64,000 nt of DNA, taken from Cyanobacteria bacterium P01_D01_bin.156 (lineage in GTDB: Bacteria; Cyanobacteriota; Cyanobacteriia; Phormidesmidales; Phormidesmidaceae). The notes below the pieces were generated by a model. The model did no database searches. It saw nothing but the letters and a program-made list of their open reading frames with translations, and was not told the origin of the DNA. The position numbers were made by a program, and so were the translations under genes. Below, piece by piece: positions 50,234-62,097 of the stretch (positions within the stretch are counted from its first letter, which is position 1; every line of letters begins with the position of its first letter). Location of the stretch: assembly GCA_039024555.1 (NCBI GenBank), contig JBCCQQ010000002.1, positions 96,001 to 160,000 of the forward strand, given 5' to 3'.

Positions 50234-53200
50234 TCATCCATAAACCGGGGTTTCAATATGAGCAATCAGAGGTTCTTCTAAAGTTTGGGCTTTGTGCAGA
50301 AGTAAACGATTGCAGTAGGCGCGTAGTTGTTCGGCCTGGGGCTCATTGGGGATATAAATTTGGCCGCCTGACTCGGTCACAGATTTATTAAATAGGGGTG
50401 TTTGTAGCAATGCACGGTACGTGGGCAAATCAGTAGTGCGATCGCAAATTAACCCTCGATCCGCTGATGTGGGTACTAAGCCAGGGGGCAAATGGCCTTC
50501 CAACAATGCCAAAATATGCAAATGACACGCCTGGGTATTAATTCCCCGCTGTTCTAAGAGGTGCATGATCGCCCCCACCGGCAAGGGTTGCTGAGGAAAT
50601 ACCCGCAGTAGTTCCATCAGCAAAAAGTAATCACTGTATTGTTGTCGAGTAATATTAAACACCTGGGGATAGCGGGCAACATTGACTAAACCATAGGCCA
50701 CACGGCTACAGCTCTGGGGTAGATCCGCCGCATAGGTATCTTGAATGATGGTCGCATTGGGAAATTTTTGCCGGAGCCATCGAGCAATCGCTGGCAGTGA
50801 CGCTGAGCCCCCCGTACAGACAACTTGCTTAATCGATTGAGCATCGACCGTTTGTTTGCTCAGCAGCTTATCCAAAGCGCCGTTAATACGCTGAATGTAC
50901 GGCAAAAAGATCAGATTTTCGAGATGGCGTCGCTTGATCACCCAGCATTGCCCCCCTAAGCTCAGACGCACCTGATTTTTCTGTTGCAGTGCCCACTTGA
51001 GATGACGTGCTGCTGCCAATAAGCTTTGACCCAAATTTGAAGAGAGCAACCGTTGCTGTAGTCGATAGCGTTGCGCCCAATCCACATGGCCCACTGCCGG
51101 TAATGCCAGATCGCTTAAGTTTAACAGGCTCCAATCGGCATCCTGTGCCAATAGATGCCCCTGCCAATCCCAAGTGTTACTCGGATCTGTATTCTCAATC
51201 GATTGACGACGCTCATCGGGAATTAATAACTGACAAACGATATCTTGATCTAGGGCATCCCCAGCATAGGCAAAGCTGCGTAAGGCAAAGTCACTGTAGT
51301 CAAGATTATTAAGAGTCTGAGGCAAATCGACCAGAGCTAGTTCTGTCATCGTAGCGCCCGCACTGACAACGATTGTGCCTTCTTGCCATTGACAGTTGTA
51401 TAGGCTGGGCTGACGAGAAAGAGGAACAGTCTCAGCTACCGATATTTCGTGGGGGTCAGGCAATCCAGATAGAACTGTTGCGATCGCGTCCTCCACAAAA
51501 ATCACCTGTTCAGGATGCTCAATAATCCCTGCTGCCAGGACTGCTTCCCGCAAATTAAAACTGTAGGTATCAGGCCAATTTGTCGGATAGCCGACAATCA
51601 CACCCTGCAGTTCTCTCCAAACTTGATTTAAGGTTTGCTCATCTAACCCCACAGCCTGCCCATGGTTCATCACATATCTAAGCAACTGAACCATGGCTTG
51701 CAAAACCTGCAGCATCGGTAGCTCTACCCGATCGGACCAGCGGATCCAGGGGTCAGACATGGGTAACGTTTGACCATGCCCCACAGCCACCTTAAATAAG
51801 GGCTTTAAACGATTTACTCCCACCAACTCCGGCACCTCAGAACCGGCAACATTCAGCAATAAATCCTCAAAATCACCCAAAGCATCGTAGCCCACTGCCA
51901 CAGTCTCTTGGGCAGCCGTCATCACCGCCAAGGCTGGTAAACGAAAATGCTTAGCCTCGTCGGACGCATCAGTTTGCCAATACAGGGGATAAACCTGTCC
52001 AGTACGACGATTCATGAACACCACTGATATCCCAGTGGTGCCTACATCTAACCCCAAAAACCAAGCCCCTTCACTATCGACCGCTGGCAATGGTGTCTCC
52101 AAAGGTGGCCCTGAAGCAGCTAATGTAACTAAGGGAGTCGGTTCTTCTACATCCACCTCTGTCGCAATTCCAGCCAAATCTAGCAATGCATCCGTAGCTA
52201 CAACCTCTTCAGGAATATCCAGCGGCACAAAAGCATTAACCGCTTCAGCAGATTCTTCAACCAGAGATGCTGTATCCAGATCTAGCTGAGTCAATGACTC
52301 ATCCTCACTGAGTATCAAAGGATTATCTTCCAGAAATACCACCGCATCTTCGTCTTGAATTGACTCATCTTGTGAGGTTTCTAGATCCGGCAAGGAAGAT
52401 TCTGCCAAAGACGAACCATTGAAGAAATCGTCTAGATCATCCAACTCCTGAGACTCTTCATTGAAAGATAATTCACTCGGTGTAGTCGACTCTTCAACAG
52501 TCAACAAATCATCAAAATCCGACGCTATATCCCCATCAGCGCCAGATGCTATTCCACCATCAGAAGCCTTTGAAAGCGAAGCATCCTCATCAGTCGCCGT
52601 TTGTGTTTGCCAAAATGCCTGCTGCTCAGCCTGTAAAAACTCCTCAGAATCTGCCGACAAATCTAACTCTAAATCATCTCCTTCAAGCTCGAAAGACATG
52701 TCTGGCATAGAAGCTGAATTCAAGGCAGGAGGCTCTGCATCTATGACTGCTGGGGGAGCCTCAATCAGGTTATCCAGTAGCGGCGCTTCTAAATCAGAGA
52801 ACAGCTGCTCATCGTCATCATTAGCCTGCTGCGATAAGGCATTAGAACGCTGACTCAAGTCTGCCAGTTCATTGGCTAGCGAATCAGGGATACCATCATC
52901 CTCATCCAAAGGATCGCCGATGTCGGACCAATCTAACTCATCCGAGAGAGGAGCAGTAAAAGCGGCTATTACACTGTCTTGGCCATCTAACGGAGGATCC
53001 ATATCCACAGAATCTACAGAAAATTCTCTGAAGAGATCATCAGCGTCCGAAACTGAGCTACCTTCCGTAGGGTCCGTCACCAACAGTTCATCAGCATCCT
53101 TAATAGATGCGTCGTCATCAATAGAGGCGTCGCCATCCAAATCGCTACTTAAACTATCTTCAGAACTACTCTCCTCAGGACCTTCATCCATCTCTAAATC

Positions 53201-55270
53201 CCCGAAGTCAAGATCCTGGACGACGGTTTCTAACGTGTCTTGCTCGATGGATTCTAAAGCATTCTCATCTTGAACGGCATAATCTGTCGAAAAATCAACA
53301 TTTGCGAGCTTTTGCAAGTCCTCACCCAGTTGCTCCACCAGCGGGTCATCATCCAACTCAAGCAATAAATGCTGCTCACTGTCTGACTCCACTAAGTTGA
53401 TCAGATCTTCATCTGCAGATGCTGGAATATAGACATCATCAGGCAAATTCTCTGGAATATCTAGCACCGCATCCGCCGTCTGGGACTCTGGCAAAAGATC
53501 TGATAGAGATACTATGCTCTCAGGAGCTTCTACCTGAGGGCTAGTCTCAACAACTTCGGGAACACTATCGCCAAACAGAGTTTCAACCGTCGGTTCAGAC
53601 TCTTCAGCAATCACCTCTTCAGGGGTATGTGAAGATAGATGCTCTGATGCATCCTCTTCTATATTATTTTTACCAACATCCGAGCTCACGACTGACGACT
53701 GGTTAAACAATAGTGCCTCAGCCACCTGTTCAGCCTCAAGCAGCTCAGCTTCAGTCAGTGTTTCAGGCGCATCATCTGCAAAACTAAAGGCCAACAAATC
53801 TTCTGAAAGCGGCCTCAGCTCAGAATCAGGGGCCGATGGCACAGACTTAGTAAACTGTTGTTCCGCTTCATGGGACACAGAGCCTGGGGCGTCAAAATCG
53901 AGATCGAAGTTAAACAGCTCACCGTCAGAAGCTTCAGGTGACAGAGCACTCGATTCCATCGTCGCATCGGCATCAGCACTAACAGCTAAGAGCTCTAAAC
54001 TTTCCTCCACCCCCTCTAAAGAATCACTCAAATCAAGAGGTACAGCATCAAGATTGTCATCACTTGCCAAAAATGCTTCTTCTAAAGGATCGGAAACACT
54101 ATCTACATCAGCATCTTCCTGGATAGCTGCAACGTCATCACGCTCCACATCCGGCGCACCAAACTGAATAACCGTGATATCTCCATCTAAATCGATGTTG
54201 CCACCTTTTAGGTCAATATCCTCTTCTAAAAGAGCCAGATCATTCACATCCAGAGGGTTGGATTGCAGCAACGTAACCTCTTCGTCAGCTTCCGACAGCT
54301 GCAAATCAAGGTCGAGGGTCAGTTCCGACGACGCTGTAACATCACCAATCTCTTCTTCTAAAGCTAAATTTTCTAGGGCCTGTTCCAGCTCATTTAGCTG
54401 TACCGGCTCTACAACCTCAGTGACTCTAGGCTCCTCTAATGGAGCTGGCCCATTCAAGCTACTGGCCAGATAAGAGGAAGCATCTTGCCCAAGTTGTTGG
54501 GCGAGATGATTAATAAATGCATGGAAAATGACTTCCCCCTGACGCCCCAACCCATGCATTTGGGATAACCCTTCTTCCAAAGAATCCCGATAGCTGTCAA
54601 CACTTTTTTGCAACGAATCAAATACAGCGGTCAGAGTGGTATCTAGTTTGACTAATAGCTGATCTGACTGAGCCTGCAATAAACGTACTTGATCTAGACG
54701 TTGACCTGACAACATGGGTACGGGTGAAGTTTCCGCCGCCGACAGCTGCTCTACAGTAGCTGTCTCCATAGCAGCAAAATTCTGTACCATTTGCGCCGAC
54801 AGCTGCTCCTGGAGGCGTTGCATCAGCGTCTCCAAAAACGCATTCAGCTGCTCTTCAGACAGCACGGGTTCCGTACGCCGAGCTTCCAATACATTAATTT
54901 CTGCTTGTAGGCTTTCACGTTTTTGCCGTAGCGCCTCCAGCTCTTGACGCATCGGTCGCAGGGAATTTTCGCGCAGATAACGCATTTCCAACACCAGGCC
55001 CTGCAATACCTGGGAAGCAGCATCTTCTGTCTGGGCAGTCGAAACCTGTGGCGACACCAACTGCCCTGTGTCGGGATCCAGTGGCCCCCATCCCCCTGGA
55101 GATTCGAACATCTGCTCCAACGACTGAAGATAGTCGGATAATTCGCCCAGTAGTTGGCGTTGTCGATCGACTTCTTCCGCAAAGCCTAAGGATAGGCGAG
55201 ATGGTGGTTTAGCCAGAGCAGCTTCAATTTCAGCAATGAGGCGTTGGATTTGATCCTTTTGAGAAGTCAC
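50234..55270 (-). CDS. Very large protein: N-terminal coiled coils, long Asp/Glu-rich low-complexity linker, C-terminal Hsp70/actin-like ATPase fold (GTG start at 55270 assumed)
   Basis: WFLGLDVGTTG, VGYP, AGDALDQDI, VVCTGGSASLP motifs in the last ~600 aa. Confidence 0.75.
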   Translation of the reverse strand: MTSQKDQIQRLIAEIEAALAKPPSRLSLGFAEEVDRQRQLLGELSDYLQSLEQMFESPGGWGPLDPDTGQLVSPQVSTAQTEDAASQVLQGLVLEMRYLRENSLRPMRQELEALRQKRESLQAEINVLEARRTEPVLSEEQLNAFLETLMQRLQEQLSAQMVQNFAAMETATVEQLSAAETSPVPMLSGQRLDQVRLLQAQSDQLLVKLDTTLTAVFDSLQKSVDSYRDSLEEGLSQMHGLGRQGEVIFHAFINHLAQQLGQDASSYLASSLNGPAPLEEPRVTEVVEPVQLNELEQALENLALEEEIGDVTASSELTLDLDLQLSEADEEVTLLQSNPLDVNDLALLEEDIDLKGGNIDLDGDITVIQFGAPDVERDDVAAIQEDADVDSVSDPLEEAFLASDDNLDAVPLDLSDSLEGVEESLELLAVSADADATMESSALSPEASDGELFNFDLDFDAPGSVSHEAEQQFTKSVPSAPDSELRPLSEDLLAFSFADDAPETLTEAELLEAEQVAEALLFNQSSVVSSDVGKNNIEEDASEHLSSHTPEEVIAEESEPTVETLFGDSVPEVVETSPQVEAPESIVSLSDLLPESQTADAVLDIPENLPDDVYIPASADEDLINLVESDSEQHLLLELDDDPLVEQLGEDLQKLANVDFSTDYAVQDENALESIEQDTLETVVQDLDFGDLEMDEGPEESSSEDSLSSDLDGDASIDDDASIKDADELLVTDPTEGSSVSDADDLFREFSVDSVDMDPPLDGQDSVIAAFTAPLSDELDWSDIGDPLDEDDGIPDSLANELADLSQRSNALSQQANDDDEQLFSDLEAPLLDNLIEAPPAVIDAEPPALNSASMPDMSFELEGDDLELDLSADSEEFLQAEQQAFWQTQTATDEDASLSKASDGGIASGADGDIASDFDDLLTVEESTTPSELSFNEESQELDDLDDFFNGSSLAESSLPDLETSQDESIQDEDAVVFLEDNPLILSEDESLTQLDLDTASLVEESAEAVNAFVPLDIPEEVVATDALLDLAGIATEVDVEEPTPLVTLAASGPPLETPLPAVDSEGAWFLGLDVGTTGISVVFMNRRTGQVYPLYWQTDASDEAKHFRLPALAVMTAAQETVAVGYDALGDFEDLLLNVAGSEVPELVGVNRLKPLFKVAVGHGQTLPMSDPWIRWSDRVELPMLQVLQAMVQLLRYVMNHGQAVGLDEQTLNQVWRELQGVIVGYPTNWPDTYSFNLREAVLAAGIIEHPEQVIFVEDAIATVLSGLPDPHEISVAETVPLSRQPSLYNCQWQEGTIVVSAGATMTELALVDLPQTLNNLDYSDFALRSFAYAGDALDQDIVCQLLIPDERRQSIENTDPSNTWDWQGHLLAQDADWSLLNLSDLALPAVGHVDWAQRYRLQQRLLSSNLGQSLLAAARHLKWALQQKNQVRLSLGGQCWVIKRRHLENLIFLPYIQRINGALDKLLSKQTVDAQSIKQVVCTGGSASLPAIARWLRQKFPNATIIQDTYAADLPQSCSRVAYGLVNVARYPQVFNITRQQYSDYFLLMELLRVFPQQPLPVGAIMHLLEQRGINTQACHLHILALLEGHLPPGLVPTSADRGLICDRTTDLPTYRALLQTPLFNKSVTESGGQIYIPNEPQAEQLRAYCNRLLLHKAQTLEEPLIAHIETPVYG

Positions 55271-55781
55271 AATGCGGCCTTTCAACAACGAACTCTGCAA
55301 ATCGGAGGATACCCTACCAAACCCTAGGGATGACAGGACCGACCAATGGAATGCCCAAAGTGTAAAGCAGGCTGGCTAAAAAAGCACAAGCTCCTTCTCT
55401 TTATGGGAATTCAGGAGGAAATCCTGACAGCCAACACAATGGATATCACAACCTAGCAACCGTCATCCTAGTCGATGGGTTGAACCCTAACATTTAGATA
55501 TGAAGTTAAGTTAAGGATCAAACTATAGGGGAAGCGAGCAATCGTGCTGTAACCTGTTTTAGGCAAATAAAACAATTAAAGACAAACTAATTCTTCATGT
55601 TTGATGCAGCCGTTGTCCTAACCATTAAGCGATGGGTTATCTAACCTTCGATGTCTAACTAAAGAGGTCAACAGGGTGGTGGCGTGCTAAGTGACTTGCC
55701 ATATATCTATCTCGAAAAAAGACCTCCATTCTTCGATTTTCCTGTTTTAATGAGTCCACATAACCATGGCCTCCACCTCCT

Positions 55782-59500: not shown

Positions 59501-60184
59501 ATGTCACCCAGATCTTCAATGACTGATACAACTGCATTCGTGGCAGGATGTGCCACGACAGGTGTTGCTGTCTTAGTGTTGTTGCTAGCAAGAGTTGGGT
59601 TTCAAACCTCTACACCAACAGTAGAGTCAAGTGCTCCACCGCCAGAAACAGTCGTTCCGGTTCCTCAATCTCCCGTACAGTCCCTGGATGATGGCCTTAG
59701 TGAAGACATTAAGCAAGAATTAGACCGCCAGCGAGATCTAACAGCTAAGCTAGAAAATCAGCTAGTACAGCAGGAAATGCTGGCTCGAAACCTGGAAAAT
59801 CAGCTTAAACAGCAACAGGAAGAGACTCGGGCTGTACTTTCACAGCTGAGGGAATATCAGCGTTCAGTAGACACATTATCGTTGCAAAATGGTCAACTGG
59901 CGGCGGCTCAATCGAATCAGACGCAGCAATCTTCTAATATCCAAACCATCCTGCTTTGGATGGGTGGAGGTTTGCTATTGGTAATGGTTGTAGGAGGAGG
60001 GATTATCCTTCTCTGTTTGGTATTTGTTTCTGGGCGACGGCGTGAAGAGCGTTCTGTTCCAGTGGTATATCCATTTCAGATGCCCGTTCCCCCTAGTGGG
60101 TATCGATACTATGAGCAAGAATTTTTACCGCCACCCAATATGCGACCTAAACGAGCCAACGCCACTTATTACGATGTGGAATAG
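59501..60184 (+). CDS. Membrane protein with N-terminal hydrophobic segment, Gln-rich coiled coil and C-terminal TM helix (PatN-like architecture)
   Basis: AFVAGCATTGVAVLVLLL, Q-rich heptads, ILLWMGGGLLLVMVVGGGII. Confidence 0.7.
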   Translation: MSPRSSMTDTTAFVAGCATTGVAVLVLLLARVGFQTSTPTVESSAPPPETVVPVPQSPVQSLDDGLSEDIKQELDRQRDLTAKLENQLVQQEMLARNLENQLKQQQEETRAVLSQLREYQRSVDTLSLQNGQLAAAQSNQTQQSSNIQTILLWMGGGLLLVMVVGGGIILLCLVFVSGRRREERSVPVVYPFQMPVPPSGYRYYEQEFLPPPNMRPKRANATYYDVE

Positions 60185-60426
60185 GGTGTACACAATCCGA
60201 TCTTGATGACGGACAGTTCAGAGAGTATGAATGCTTATGAGAGGTAAGCGTTCAGCATTAGTGCTCAGAGAATTCTCTTTACGTCAAACCCATAGAATAG
60301 AAGCCACAAAATCAGCAATCACCCTGTTGGCTGCCAAATAAGTAAATGTAAGGATGATCACCATAAGGAAGCAGCTAAAACACTCGCTTCTGCCATTGTT
60401 GTTTCTAGTTAAAAGGACTTATGGTT

Positions 60427-60585
60427 ATGTCCAAGCGCAATCAGACATCTCAAAAAGTTTTATGGCAACCTATTTCTGGTAAGCAATCAGAAGTTGTAAG
60501 GGGTGGCTTCGGATTTAGTTCTGGAACTTCACCTTCAGGCAACTCTTGGTGTGCACAGACGAAGAACATCATATTTTTACGTTAG
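60427..60585 (+). CDS. Double-glycine-leader peptide precursor 1 (52 aa; alternative ATG at 60421)
   Basis: MSKRNQTSQKVLWQPISGKQSEVVRGG|FGFSSGTSPSGNSWCAQTKNIIFLR; AAAAGGA RBS; paralogous to two downstream ORFs. Confidence 0.8.
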   Translation: MSKRNQTSQKVLWQPISGKQSEVVRGGFGFSSGTSPSGNSWCAQTKNIIFLR

Positions 60586-60670
60586 GCACAAACATCTTTT
60601 CAGTAGAGGTACGCCACATCCAGTGCAGTAGCCTTTTAATTTCCAAGATAAGGTAAAAAAGTTTTGGAAA

Positions 60671-60711
60671 GTCAAGCTAGGATTCCAGCGATACAGGGAT
60701 CCTAGTTTGAC
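60671..60711. terminator. Hairpin downstream of peptide gene 1
   Basis: gtcaagctaggattcc ... gggatcctagtttgac. Confidence 0.55.
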
Positions 60712-61031
60712 TATTAGTGAATAACAGTTAACCCTATCTCACCTATGTAGGCTCAAAGGTAACACCCAAATTCGACCTAGGAATAAAAATGAGACAGTTA
60801 ACGACATGGCTGGATTACGGAAAATACAGAGACTGATTAGGAGAAATTATCAAGCGTTTATGGTCGCTCAGGTCTCTTTACCTTAGACACATAAAACACC
60901 AGTCACACGCTCAGCACTGCTACCCTTACTCAACCGAAGTGGAAATGCCAACATAGTTGACATGGAAAAGATACGCTAAAGCGCTTAATCCCGTCACTGT
61001 TCTTTCTACTTGAAAAGGTACAAGTTCTAAC

Positions 61032-61178
61032 ATGTCTAAGCAAAACCAATCTTCTAAAGAAGCTCTCTGGAAGCCCCTTTCCAATCAACAAGCAGAAGTT
61101 GTAAATGGTGGGTTGTTTCGGAGTTATTGTAACCGCACAAAAAAATCGATGTACCGTTGGCACAACTACGGGCAGTGA
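61032..61178 (+). CDS. Double-glycine-leader peptide precursor 2 (48 aa)
   Basis: MSKQNQSSKEALWKPLSNQQAEVVNGG|LFRSYCNRTKKSMYRWHNYGQ. Confidence 0.8.
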   Translation: MSKQNQSSKEALWKPLSNQQAEVVNGGLFRSYCNRTKKSMYRWHNYGQ

Positions 61179-61222
61179 GCAGAGTGGATTCAATGTGGCA
61201 AGGTTAAAATAATTACTAAACC

Positions 61223-61264
61223 AACGCTTGAATTTCGACAGTCTCGAAACTCAAGCGTTTTTTT
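61223..61264 (+). terminator. Intrinsic terminator after peptide gene 2
   Basis: aacgcttgaatttcga-cagtc-tcgaaactcaagcgtt followed by a T run. Confidence 0.7.
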
Positions 61265-61605
61265 AATGGCTAATTTAGACGATAGTGAACTATTTATGTA
61301 GAAACGGCCTAACAAAAAGGCCAACTGTCACATGGGTAAAACATCCATTCTTTAGTCAATACTCCGCAGCAAAGCCCTTATCAATGTGTGGAATAATTAC
61401 GTTCACCACAGATAGTCAGAATTGAAAGTAGAACTGGTTGCACAACGAAATATATGGAGGTCTGTGAAGCATTCATATTTGAAGAATCCTCTTTACACAA
61501 ATCCCATAAAGCACCCGCCAAAGATTCAGTGAACACACACTGACCTTATGAAGGTATAAATGCGAACATAGTTTTGCAAGTGATGTTCACCAAGATATAC
61601 GCTCT

Positions 61606-61770
61606 ATGTTCAAACATAACCAGTCATCGAAAACAGTTCTTTGGCAGCCTCTATCTAACAAACAAGAAGAAACCTTAAAGGGTGGCGGACGCCGTCGTGG
61701 CAGGAGTTATCAGTACAACGATTGGTGTGGTCGGACAAGGAAGGTCATGATTAAAACCGGTCGTAGCTAG
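61606..61770 (+). CDS. Double-glycine-leader peptide precursor 3 (54 aa)
   Basis: MFKHNQSSKTVLWQPLSNKQEETLKGG|GRRRGRSYQYNDWCGRTRKVMIKTGRS. Confidence 0.8.
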   Translation: MFKHNQSSKTVLWQPLSNKQEETLKGGGRRRGRSYQYNDWCGRTRKVMIKTGRS

Positions 61771-61912
61771 TTGCTACTTTGAGTCCTCTCGACGAGTGAG
61801 GGTTAGGTAAGAAAAATTGCATTGATATAGTTGGGGTCACTACTCTGATAGAACTCCAGCTTTTTCATATGCTACTTAAGAAATTAAGGGACTTTAATCG
61901 CCTAGTTTTCAA

Positions 61913-61983
61913 AGGCGGCACCCAGATTCGAACTGGGGATAAAGGATTTGCAATCCTCTGCCTTACCACTTGGCCATGCCGCC
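61913..61983 (-). tRNA. trnC: tRNA-Cys (GCA), CCA not encoded
   Basis: GGCGGCATGGCCAAGTGGTAAGGCAGAGGATTGCAAATCCTTTATCCCCAGTTCGAATCTGGGTGCCGCCT folds to a cloverleaf with GCA anticodon and GTTCGAA T-loop. Confidence 0.97.
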
Positions 61984-62097
61984 GAATTGCCGAATTTCAA
62001 TATATCAAATTCTCGTCGCGTTCTAACTTAGGATTCAGTCGTAGGTCGCCTTTTTCTTGAAGTAGGGAGAAAATCAGTCTTCAACAACGCCATCTCG

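Follow-up and report, generated by a model that had tools for sequence, protein, structure and literature searches.

A tandem array of putative double-glycine prepeptide genes belongs to a dispersed cyanobacterial family with a recurrent aromatic-Cys-x-x-Thr core

The window studied here is a stretch of 64,000 nucleotides from Cyanobacteria bacterium P01_D01_bin.156 (contig JBCCQQ010000002.1, positions 96,001 to 160,000 of the forward strand). Near its right-hand end, three short genes lie in tandem on the plus strand, and each of them encodes a small peptide with a leader that ends in a double glycine. They belong to a family of 22-24 intact genes in the genome of this marine cyanobacterium. 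Our preferred interpretation, to which we assign a probability of about 0.65, is that the window genes are separate, monocistronic members of a dispersed set of double-glycine prepeptides, and that their products would be processed by a C39 peptidase-containing ABC transporter (PCAT), exported, and active outside the cell.

The three genes occupy a gap (60185-61912) between the gene for a 227-aa coiled-coil/transmembrane protein and a tRNA-Cys gene, in which no open reading frame (ORF) exceeds 87 aa. An earlier inspection of the window from its letters alone (the sequence-only reading) had picked out the three plus-strand ORFs and found no credible long ORF in the gap. Both observations were confirmed, and the start-to-start distances are 605 and 574 bp as it had described. 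Gene 1 could alternatively begin at 60421 (MVMSK...), but 60427 fits better with the alignment of the family. The peptide of gene 1 is the only one of the three that had already been predicted by a gene caller (exact match, P0002). The first 27 residues of the three peptides align without gaps, and the 13 residues that the earlier inspection had named are indeed invariant (M, K, N, Q, S, L, W, P, S, Q, E, G, and G). Synonymous codons are used at these residues: TTA/CTC/CTT for Leu, TCT/TCC/TCT for Ser, AAT/AAC/AAC for Asn, and GGC/GGG/GGC for Gly. The same inspection had described the cores as divergent, like those of the hypervariable prochlorosin libraries. This view must be revised because all three cores contain an aromatic residue and C-x-x-T (C42 and T45 are invariant) followed by basic residues, and because 16 of 22 paralogues in this genome share the motif. 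The numbers of Lys and Arg versus Asp and Glu residues in the cores are 2 versus 0 in gene 1, 5 versus 0 in gene 2, and 9 versus 1 in gene 3.

The genome from which the window derives (G000) consists of 149 contigs with a total of 6.6 Mb and is 99% complete. A profile of the three window peptides was searched against its six-frame translation; it recovered the three genes and approximately 19-20 further intact copies on 15 other contigs, with E values from 1e-15 to 1e-4. Therefore, the likeness of the three ORFs is judged to exceed chance. Twenty-two copies were aligned, and two more (one on the minus strand of C46 and one on C33) were found separately. The copies are dispersed over at least 16 loci, and the window array is one site of this dispersed family. 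Of 23 matches, 22 contain no internal stop codon, and the single TAG of the remaining match is at its end. Every one of the 22-24 copies begins with ATG, stays open for 44-65 codons, and has the double glycine at the same place, at a DNA identity of only 40-60%. The sequence-only reading had proposed an unannotated family of the secreted-peptide type, and the number of intact copies, nearly none of which had been called as genes, bears this out.

Its suggestion of selection at the protein level was also upheld. For pairs of window leaders, the non-synonymous divergence (dN, Nei-Gojobori) is 0.21-0.28, versus a synonymous divergence (dS) of 1.1-2.4. Two genes on C106, compared over 49 codons by the same method, have a dN of 0.14 and a dS of 0.72. 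Across all leader pairs, the proportion of non-synonymous differences (pN) is 0.29 versus 0.63 for synonymous ones (pS). The resulting dN/dS ratios of the leaders are approximately 0.1-0.25 and are rough values, as dS is close to saturation. Synonymous change thus exceeds non-synonymous change, and the data therefore point to genes under purifying selection at the protein level.

Double-glycine leaders are approximately 15-35 aa long, end in GG, GA, or GS, and have the consensus LSxxELxxIxGG, with hydrophobic residues at positions -4, -7, -12, and -15. A related form, M(R/K)ELX3E(I/L)X2(I/V)XG(G/A), is given in the accessible part of a survey of cyanobacterial precursors (PMC3140520). The leaders of the present family follow the pattern ...LWxPLSxxQxExVKGG and are 24-36 residues long, while the cores comprise 17-34 residues. 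All 22 aligned paralogues have L-W, an aliphatic residue three positions on, and Q-x-E-x-x-x-G-G. The last two residues are GG in 21 paralogues and AG in one, in the same alignment column. In this alignment, position -4 is V/I/L, -12 is L/I/V, -15 is W, and -11 is Ser, which resembles a double-glycine leader. The 16 cores with [W/Y/F]-C-x-x-T continue with mostly basic residues, while the remaining six peptides carry the same leader on other cores.

Other recurrent cores on this leader include FGFPGFPP..., QLFP(I/V)GNGGGWWRPGAGRGE...C, CCW(Q/L)R(Y/W)..., and YRxR... ending in G. They come from C46, C90, C33, C61, C7, and C4 of G000 and from loci of the related genomes G021, G020, and G013. Several recurrent core types carry the same leader; therefore, the leader would be an export tag common to several kinds of peptide.

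Across 14 paralogues, the approximately 215 nt that precede the ATG align in conserved blocks. An nhmmer model of this upstream module recovers exactly those 14 genes in G000 and, in addition, three partial copies (C14:41591-41693, minus strand; C50:2121-2213, plus strand; C7:66689-66765, minus strand) with no peptide ORF behind them. The partial copies may be what is left of decayed genes of the family, or this control region may drive something else there. The model also matches all four genes of a tandem array in G013, with E values from 1e-26 to 1e-29. The blocks of the gene 1 module are AAGCxTTxAT, TCTCTTTAC..CCATAGAAT, TCAGCA, TAAATG..ATGAT, and AAGGA immediately before the ATG. A 44-nt direct repeat (D1) occurs once in each of the three window units. 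RNAalifold predicted 0 consensus pairs in 18 sequences of the module, and the only Rfam matches in the window region were the tRNA and a chance-level match to FuFi-1 (20.3 bits versus a gathering score of 59.6). A structured 5' leader RNA was rejected on the basis of these two results. Neither a -35/-10 pair nor an NtcA-type site could be placed by eye. Because the module is conserved, without RNA structure, and without a sigma-70 consensus, we read it as a common promoter/operator with an untranslated leader, from which the genes would be transcribed. It would provide a handle on the regulation of the family.

A hairpin follows every ORF of the array (Table 1); therefore, each window gene looks monocistronic. 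The 3' region of gene 1 folds at -44.1 kcal/mol (z -5.67), and 0 of 200 shuffled sequences folded as well; its hairpins are likely to mark the end of the transcript. The hairpin of gene 2 at 61223-61259 was not listed by a simple terminator scan. The 100-nt stretch 3' of gene 3 folds no better than shuffled sequences (z -0.52), and the putative terminator was called there from the hairpin and U-run pattern alone.

Table 1. Positions of the peptide genes, their predicted control elements, and the flanking genes in the window.
Feature	Position	Strand	Remarks
227-aa coiled-coil/transmembrane protein gene	59501..60184	+	conserved left flank of the gap; outside the peptide system
Upstream module of gene 1 (putative promoter/5' region)	60219..60426	+	nhmmer E 1.4e-29, model of 14 paralogous upstream regions
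Peptide gene 1	60427..60585	+	52 aa; leader MSKRNQTSQKVLWQPISGKQSEVVRGG; core of 25 aa with SWCAQTKN, net charge ~+2
Two hairpins 3' of gene 1	60641..60712	+	60641-60669 and a 17-bp stem at 60670-60712; no U-run
Upstream module of gene 2	60818..61031	+	nhmmer E 2.1e-36
Peptide gene 2	61032..61178	+	48 aa; leader MSKQNQSSKEALWKPLSNQQAEVVNGG; core of 21 aa with SYCNRTKK, net charge ~+5
Intrinsic-terminator-like hairpin 3' of gene 2	61223..61266	+	hairpin 61223-61259 (inverted repeat I1), then U7
Upstream module of gene 3	61424..61605	+	nhmmer E 3.9e-22; shorter, ATG-proximal block missing
Peptide gene 3	61606..61770	+	54 aa; leader MFKHNQSSKTVLWQPLSNKQEETLKGG; core of 27 aa with DWCGRTRK, net charge ~+8
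Hairpin 3' of gene 3	61829..61866	+	then U5; terminator-like but weak
tRNA-Cys (GCA)	61913..61983	-	bounds the variable gap that contains the peptide array

Double-glycine peptides of cyanobacteria are well known, and most of them have no known product or role. No Pfam model was matched by the window peptides, and no Pfam or NCBIfam model was matched at its cut-off by any of the 22 paralogues. The statement of the sequence-only reading that this is not a named family thus stands as far as model cut-offs are concerned; it has to be qualified because the leader resembles that of the 'CTB family bacteriocin' model of NCBIfam (NF038167, 'cyan_ocin_like'). The leader of window peptide 2 matches this model with E 0.012 and 15.7 bits (cut-off 32), while peptides 1 and 3 do not match. 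Four of the 22 paralogues match at E<=10 (best E 0.0026), and the best six-frame match in G000, 20.9 bits, is under the same cut-off. A comparison of the two profiles with hhalign gave a probability of 88% (E 3e-6) over 33 columns, which cover the leader and only a few further columns. The CTB leader reads ...LFxxLSDEQQExVxGG, compared with ...LWxPLSDKQAEVVKGG in the present family. CTB peptides are likewise small cyanobacterial prepeptides in tandem arrays with long spacers, and their loci have HlyD and C39 genes in the flanks. In contrast, the CTB cores of approximately 50 aa are rich in Gly, Ser, and Asn, are not cationic, and contain ADFELxGSNFAN ... GPxGS ... TAAQDFLGLG; the cationic cores of 17-34 aa with [WYF]CxxT are unrelated to them. 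CTB genes were found in 12 of 151 sampled genomes of the phylum, mostly in tandem, with 10 in family f22, whereas the present family was found only in f1. Judged by model score and core, the present family does not appear to belong to CTB, and the resemblance is one of leaders. The accessible part of a study of Nodularia describes four tandem CTB genes that are induced by phosphate starvation (PMC9846622).

Class II bacteriocins and pheromones that are substrates of PCATs (PCAT1/CtA, ComA/ComC, and LahT) provide a second comparison. They share with the present family a short leader that ends in GG with hydrophobic residues at -4, -12, and -15, a C39 domain with the Cys/His triad in the genome, leader docking (modelled here), and small cationic products (predicted here). 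They differ in that their genes form operons with an immunity gene, exporter, or sensor, whereas the genes of the present family are mostly orphans at 16 or more loci, with a small or polar residue at -7. A scan of the neighbours of 16 family loci in G000 found no recurrent small membrane protein of the immunity type. Among language-model look-alikes in the ESM Atlas, none reached a score of 0.9; the weak ones include ComC pheromone precursors (0.82, a lead only).

The earlier inspection had considered the leader too short for the Nif11 or NHLP type. Its 24-36 residues agree with this, and none of the 22 peptides matched an NCBIfam or Pfam model of that kind at E<=10; the relevant models are TIGR03798 and TIGR03793, which we take to be those of the Nif11- and NHLP-leader precursors, respectively, whose long leaders are homologous to Nif11 or to the nitrile hydratase alpha subunit. 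The family resembles the prochlorosin, Nif11, and NHLP libraries, partly as far as the accessible text of PMC3140520 describes them, in having many scattered paralogues, a common leader that ends in GG or GA, different cores, and PCAT export, which is only predicted here. However, leaders in those libraries are approximately 70-80 aa long and cores are hypervariable, while most cores here have one motif. The same text establishes double-glycine prepeptides, PCAT/HlyD export, and many unclassified short-leader precursors in cyanobacteria. The strings LWQP, LWKP, LWQS, LWKS, LWQA, and LWTS are absent from five text supplements of Wang et al. 2011. We consider the leader/core family to be new, with its cationic aromatic-C-x-x-T core, its 22-24 dispersed and mostly orphan monocistronic genes (14 with the common upstream module), and its neighbourhood of two-partner-secretion (TPS) and CHAT genes.

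Matches to the family were found in 3 of 21 genomes of the same genus, in 6 of 172 other genomes of the same taxonomic family, and in 0 of 400 genomes drawn evenly from the phylum. The larger searches scored a part of the candidates per genome, and these counts accordingly mean 'not found in those searched'. With this scope, the family is lineage-restricted. Six family proteins are present among 5.8 billion protein clusters, and five of them carry no outside source. A library of 1.84 billion representative proteins gave 32 matches at E<=0.001, for which 25 and 6 sequences were examined and one match of 732 aa was left out. Ten of the 25 are further members outside G000 and G013 with aromatic-C-x-x-T/S cores, which include EWCNRTGK, DYCNRTGK, WFCTQTQR, and SYCPQTKS. 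The G013 genome has four tandem copies with WCNRTGK-type cores and at least nine family peptides in total.

A record titled Leptothoe kymatousa TAU-MAC 1615 (L065) contains a four-gene array whose peptides are the same as those of G013:C12. As far as its accessible text goes, a survey of the genus reported no bacteriocin cluster in this strain (PMC8225149). The survey result, set beside the four-gene array in L065 and the fact that nearly no family gene had been called, indicates that gene callers and biosynthetic gene cluster finders can overlook whole peptide families. The same text describes axenic growth of TAU-MAC 1615, antibacterial extracts, and a marker completeness of approximately 70% at x450 coverage, which it reads as genome reduction. 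Because the strain grows axenically and its extracts are reported to be antibacterial, a direct test is feasible. Short cationic cores with one conserved motif are easily synthesised and easily sought by mass spectrometry.

The genes that adjoin the family were compared in 11 distinct loci of relatives (ORFs of at least 90 aa, 1.5-kb flanks) and in 16 loci of G000. A C39 ABC exporter gene is present in 3 of the 11 relatives' loci (G021 L041, G020 L036, and G145 L063). In G000, 2 of 16 loci are within 6 kb of a PCAT gene, and one of these two is also near an HlyD gene; a placement test gave 0.14 expected and P 0.009 with a threshold chosen post hoc. The sequence-only reading had regarded the window genes as orphans whose C39-ABC and HlyD partners would be encoded elsewhere. 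Such genes do exist elsewhere in G000, and in relatives the C39 exporter adjoins the array. TPS-domain genes, which encode TpsA-like proteins, stand beside the arrays in 7 of the 11 relatives' loci (L035, L036, L043, L045, L061, L063, and L064). In G000, 4 of 16 loci (C106, C5, C46, and C33; L020, L022, L028, and L032) have a TPS or TPS-CHAT gene no more than 5 kb away, compared with 0.54 expected (P 0.0017, threshold post hoc). Some of the TPS proteins carry a C-terminal CHAT domain. At five loci (C33, L035, L045, L064, and L036), the peptides are located 240-400 bp upstream of a TPS gene on the same strand. TPS/CHAT genes thus appear to adjoin family arrays far more often than chance placement would allow. 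This recurrent neighbourhood suggests a testable link between two secretion systems. A literature search found no paper on the CHAT domain together with two-partner secretion in cyanobacteria.

G000 has four short-type PCATs with the catalytic Cys and His. Alignment to PCAT1 (4RY2) revealed the C39 Cys/His/Asp triad in the C46 PCAT, and C49a, C49b, and C77 likewise have the Cys and the His. The C49b PCAT, which stands in an HlyD-PCAT-TPS row, shares 75-77% identity with the PCATs that are linked to arrays in G021 and G020. A search of ORFs of 25 aa or more beside the C49 PCATs revealed no GG peptide gene. A different, long-type exporter with cNMP-binding, C39-like, and ABC domains is encoded in G000:C38 (L082:4494-7472) and G013:C11 (L108); in it, the catalytic Cys is replaced by Ser and the catalytic His is missing. 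HetC of Nostoc, as described in PMC10986499, differs in this.

With alignments as input for both partners, a fold model that paired window peptide 1 with the C39 domain of the C49b PCAT scored 0.70, versus 0.05 for the best of three controls. Three runs share at least 81% of the contacts, and the predicted local distance difference test value (pLDDT) of the partner is at least 55. The mark of this tool was reached by 116 of 157 solved complexes and by 2 of 215 mismatched pairs, and it is only a rough guide here, as our own alignments were used. Leader residues 11-16 and 20-30 contact C39 residues 11-15, which include Cys14, and His85, and the model places the GG at Cys14/His85. Because like complexes have already been solved (PCAT1-CtA, ComA, and LahT), we take the model to indicate likeness to them rather than binding.

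The mechanism that we favour would proceed as follows. By analogy with PCAT1/CtA, ComA/ComC, and LahT, the leader of 24-36 aa would dock in the C39 domain of a short-type PCAT; the C49b type together with its HlyD adaptor, or else its C46 paralogue, is the strongest candidate. The exporter would cleave after the GG and export a cationic peptide of 17-34 aa, in which, for 16 of 22 copies, aromatic-Cys-x-x-Thr is followed by mostly basic residues and then a hydrophobic residue. The released peptides would most likely act outside the cell, either as signals or as bacteriocin-like or allelopathic agents.

Several observations weigh against this mechanism. No PCAT, HlyD, or TPS gene is found beside the window array or at 12 of the 16 G000 loci. 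Position -7 of the leader is A/S/T/E rather than the Leu or Ile of canonical leaders, and the Glu is at -6 rather than -8. A sigma-70 consensus scan of 60150-62000 found 0 promoter-like sites, versus a mean of 3.5 in shuffled sequences, and the sequencing-run records list no RNA run for this DNA, the only run with it being a DNA run that may be the source of the window itself. The only C39 match in G013, which has at least nine family peptides, is the long-type exporter with Ser for the catalytic Cys and no His. G013 is 75% complete, and a PCAT gene may be missing from it; unless this is the case, PCAT cleavage cannot be the whole story. The fold model may have passed because solved PCAT-substrate complexes were already known to it. 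For the core motif, pN is skewed downward, since a regular expression was used to choose that motif.

The TPS neighbours suggest a different role for the peptides, namely, as signals or accessory factors of TPS and TPS-CHAT exoproteins; once exported by a PCAT, they would act on TpsA/CHAT or be cut by it. Within this explanation, which we consider unlikely, a caspase-like CHAT protease could cut the basic pair after the Thr, or the peptides could signal between the cells of a filament. It would account for the frequent adjacency in relatives and in G000, for the same-strand position of the peptides shortly upstream of TPS genes at five loci, and for the HlyD-PCAT-TPS row that contains the G000 orthologue of the array-linked PCATs. 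The link also seems specific to the present family, since a scan of the 21 flanking ORFs (140 aa or more) around 20 CTB-family loci yielded no TPS protein, and the ComC-like look-alikes agree with a signalling role. However, the window locus and most G000 loci are without a TPS neighbour, no receptor or two-component pair recurs beside the peptides, and some adjacency arises easily with 24 TPS genes in G000. The adjacency could also reflect common 'competition islands' or variable regions rather than joint function, and the idea of CHAT cleavage is pure conjecture. A bolder proposal starts from approximately two dozen dispersed cationic peptides, with one control module of ~215 nt before all copies with a C-x-x-T core, and makes the PCAT-exported peptide a substrate, activator, or signal of TpsA-CHAT with the aromatic-C-x-x-T-basic-basic motif as the recognition or cleavage site. 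We regard it as a distinctly improbable speculation. If true, it would link a type-I-like peptide exporter to type-Vb secretion in filamentous marine cyanobacteria, a coupling not described before.

The peptides could also be precursors of true RiPPs (ribosomally synthesised peptides that are modified after translation), in which an enzyme acting in trans would modify C-x-x-T, for example to a Cys-to-Thr thioether or a (methyl)lanthionine-like ring, before PCAT cleavage. Prochlorosin genes are dispersed and are served by one ProcM, and a common leader on dispersed genes would suit one such enzyme here. Sixteen of the 22 cores, and metagenomic members too, have the invariant Cys and Thr three apart and beside an aromatic residue, an arrangement that resembles a site of modification, and a radical SAM/SPASM gene is located 1.3 kb upstream of two C55 peptides. 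Against this, the motif is missing from six paralogues that share the leader, the 16 contexts of G000 and 11 of relatives show no recurrent modifying-enzyme family, and no LanM or LanC was found in G000, G013, or G020, while G021 has one. The radical SAM/SPASM gene is present in 19 of 21 genomes of the genus at 86-92% identity, most of them without peptides, and it was not found in G013; it was therefore rejected as a dedicated maturase. Its NCBIfam matches are generic radical SAM models far under their cut-offs (best 76 bits versus 380). We consider the RiPP explanation quite unlikely, and the RiPP label of the sequence-only reading stays unproven. The radical SAM/SPASM gene (L025:7211-8293) encodes 361 aa and lies between an AcsF cyclase gene and the gene for a 362-aa protein with a C-terminal cold-shock domain. 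It would be extremely improbable, in our judgement, that the ORFs are untranslated and that the units of ~600 bp amount to decayed mobile DNA, a family of small-RNA genes, or a repeat without coding function, with frames open by chance or by recent common descent. Such an origin would fit the failure of gene callers, the scarcity of family proteins in the clusters, the three partial modules without an ORF, an upstream 215 nt about as conserved as the ORF, and the absence of a Shine-Dalgarno-like block from gene 3. It is contradicted by the large excess of synonymous change, by the ATG, open frame, and GG kept in every copy, and by the core motif conserved across species and in metagenomes. The 0 consensus RNA pairs, the lack of an Rfam family at its gathering score, and the lack of terminal inverted repeats or target duplications are also contrary to it. 

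Elsewhere in the window, a 1688-aa ORF (50234-55300, minus strand) matched no Pfam family at E<=1e-5, and NCBIfam gave only a weak HscA-like stretch (residues ~1418-1517).

The 227-aa membrane-protein gene that precedes the array has a nucleotide identity of 73-76% in genomes of the same genus. In seven of them (G002, G003, G005, G008, G009, G010, and G012), it is separated from the tRNA-Cys/fructosamine-kinase genes by only ~26-136 bp, and in G006 by ~430 bp. The gap measures 1.7 kb with the three peptide genes in G000, and in G013 (C14:234340-236235, L079) it measures 1.9 kb and contains two unrelated ORFs of 167 aa, with a signal-peptide-like start, and 232 aa. Because the gap is short in the seven genomes and differently filled in G000 and G013, the array is placed in a variable spot that adjoins a tRNA gene. 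A repeat analysis found no terminal inverted repeats or target-site duplications around the array units, and a mobile-element origin of the units was rejected on this basis. The 3' end of the membrane-protein gene (60165-60183) is echoed over 19 nt (15 of 19 matches) at 61377-61395, upstream of gene 3, in register with the corresponding position upstream of gene 1. Tandem duplication in place may have left this trace, or the likeness may be due to chance. The upstream DNA of the three units is 47-54% identical, and the units are otherwise old duplicates.

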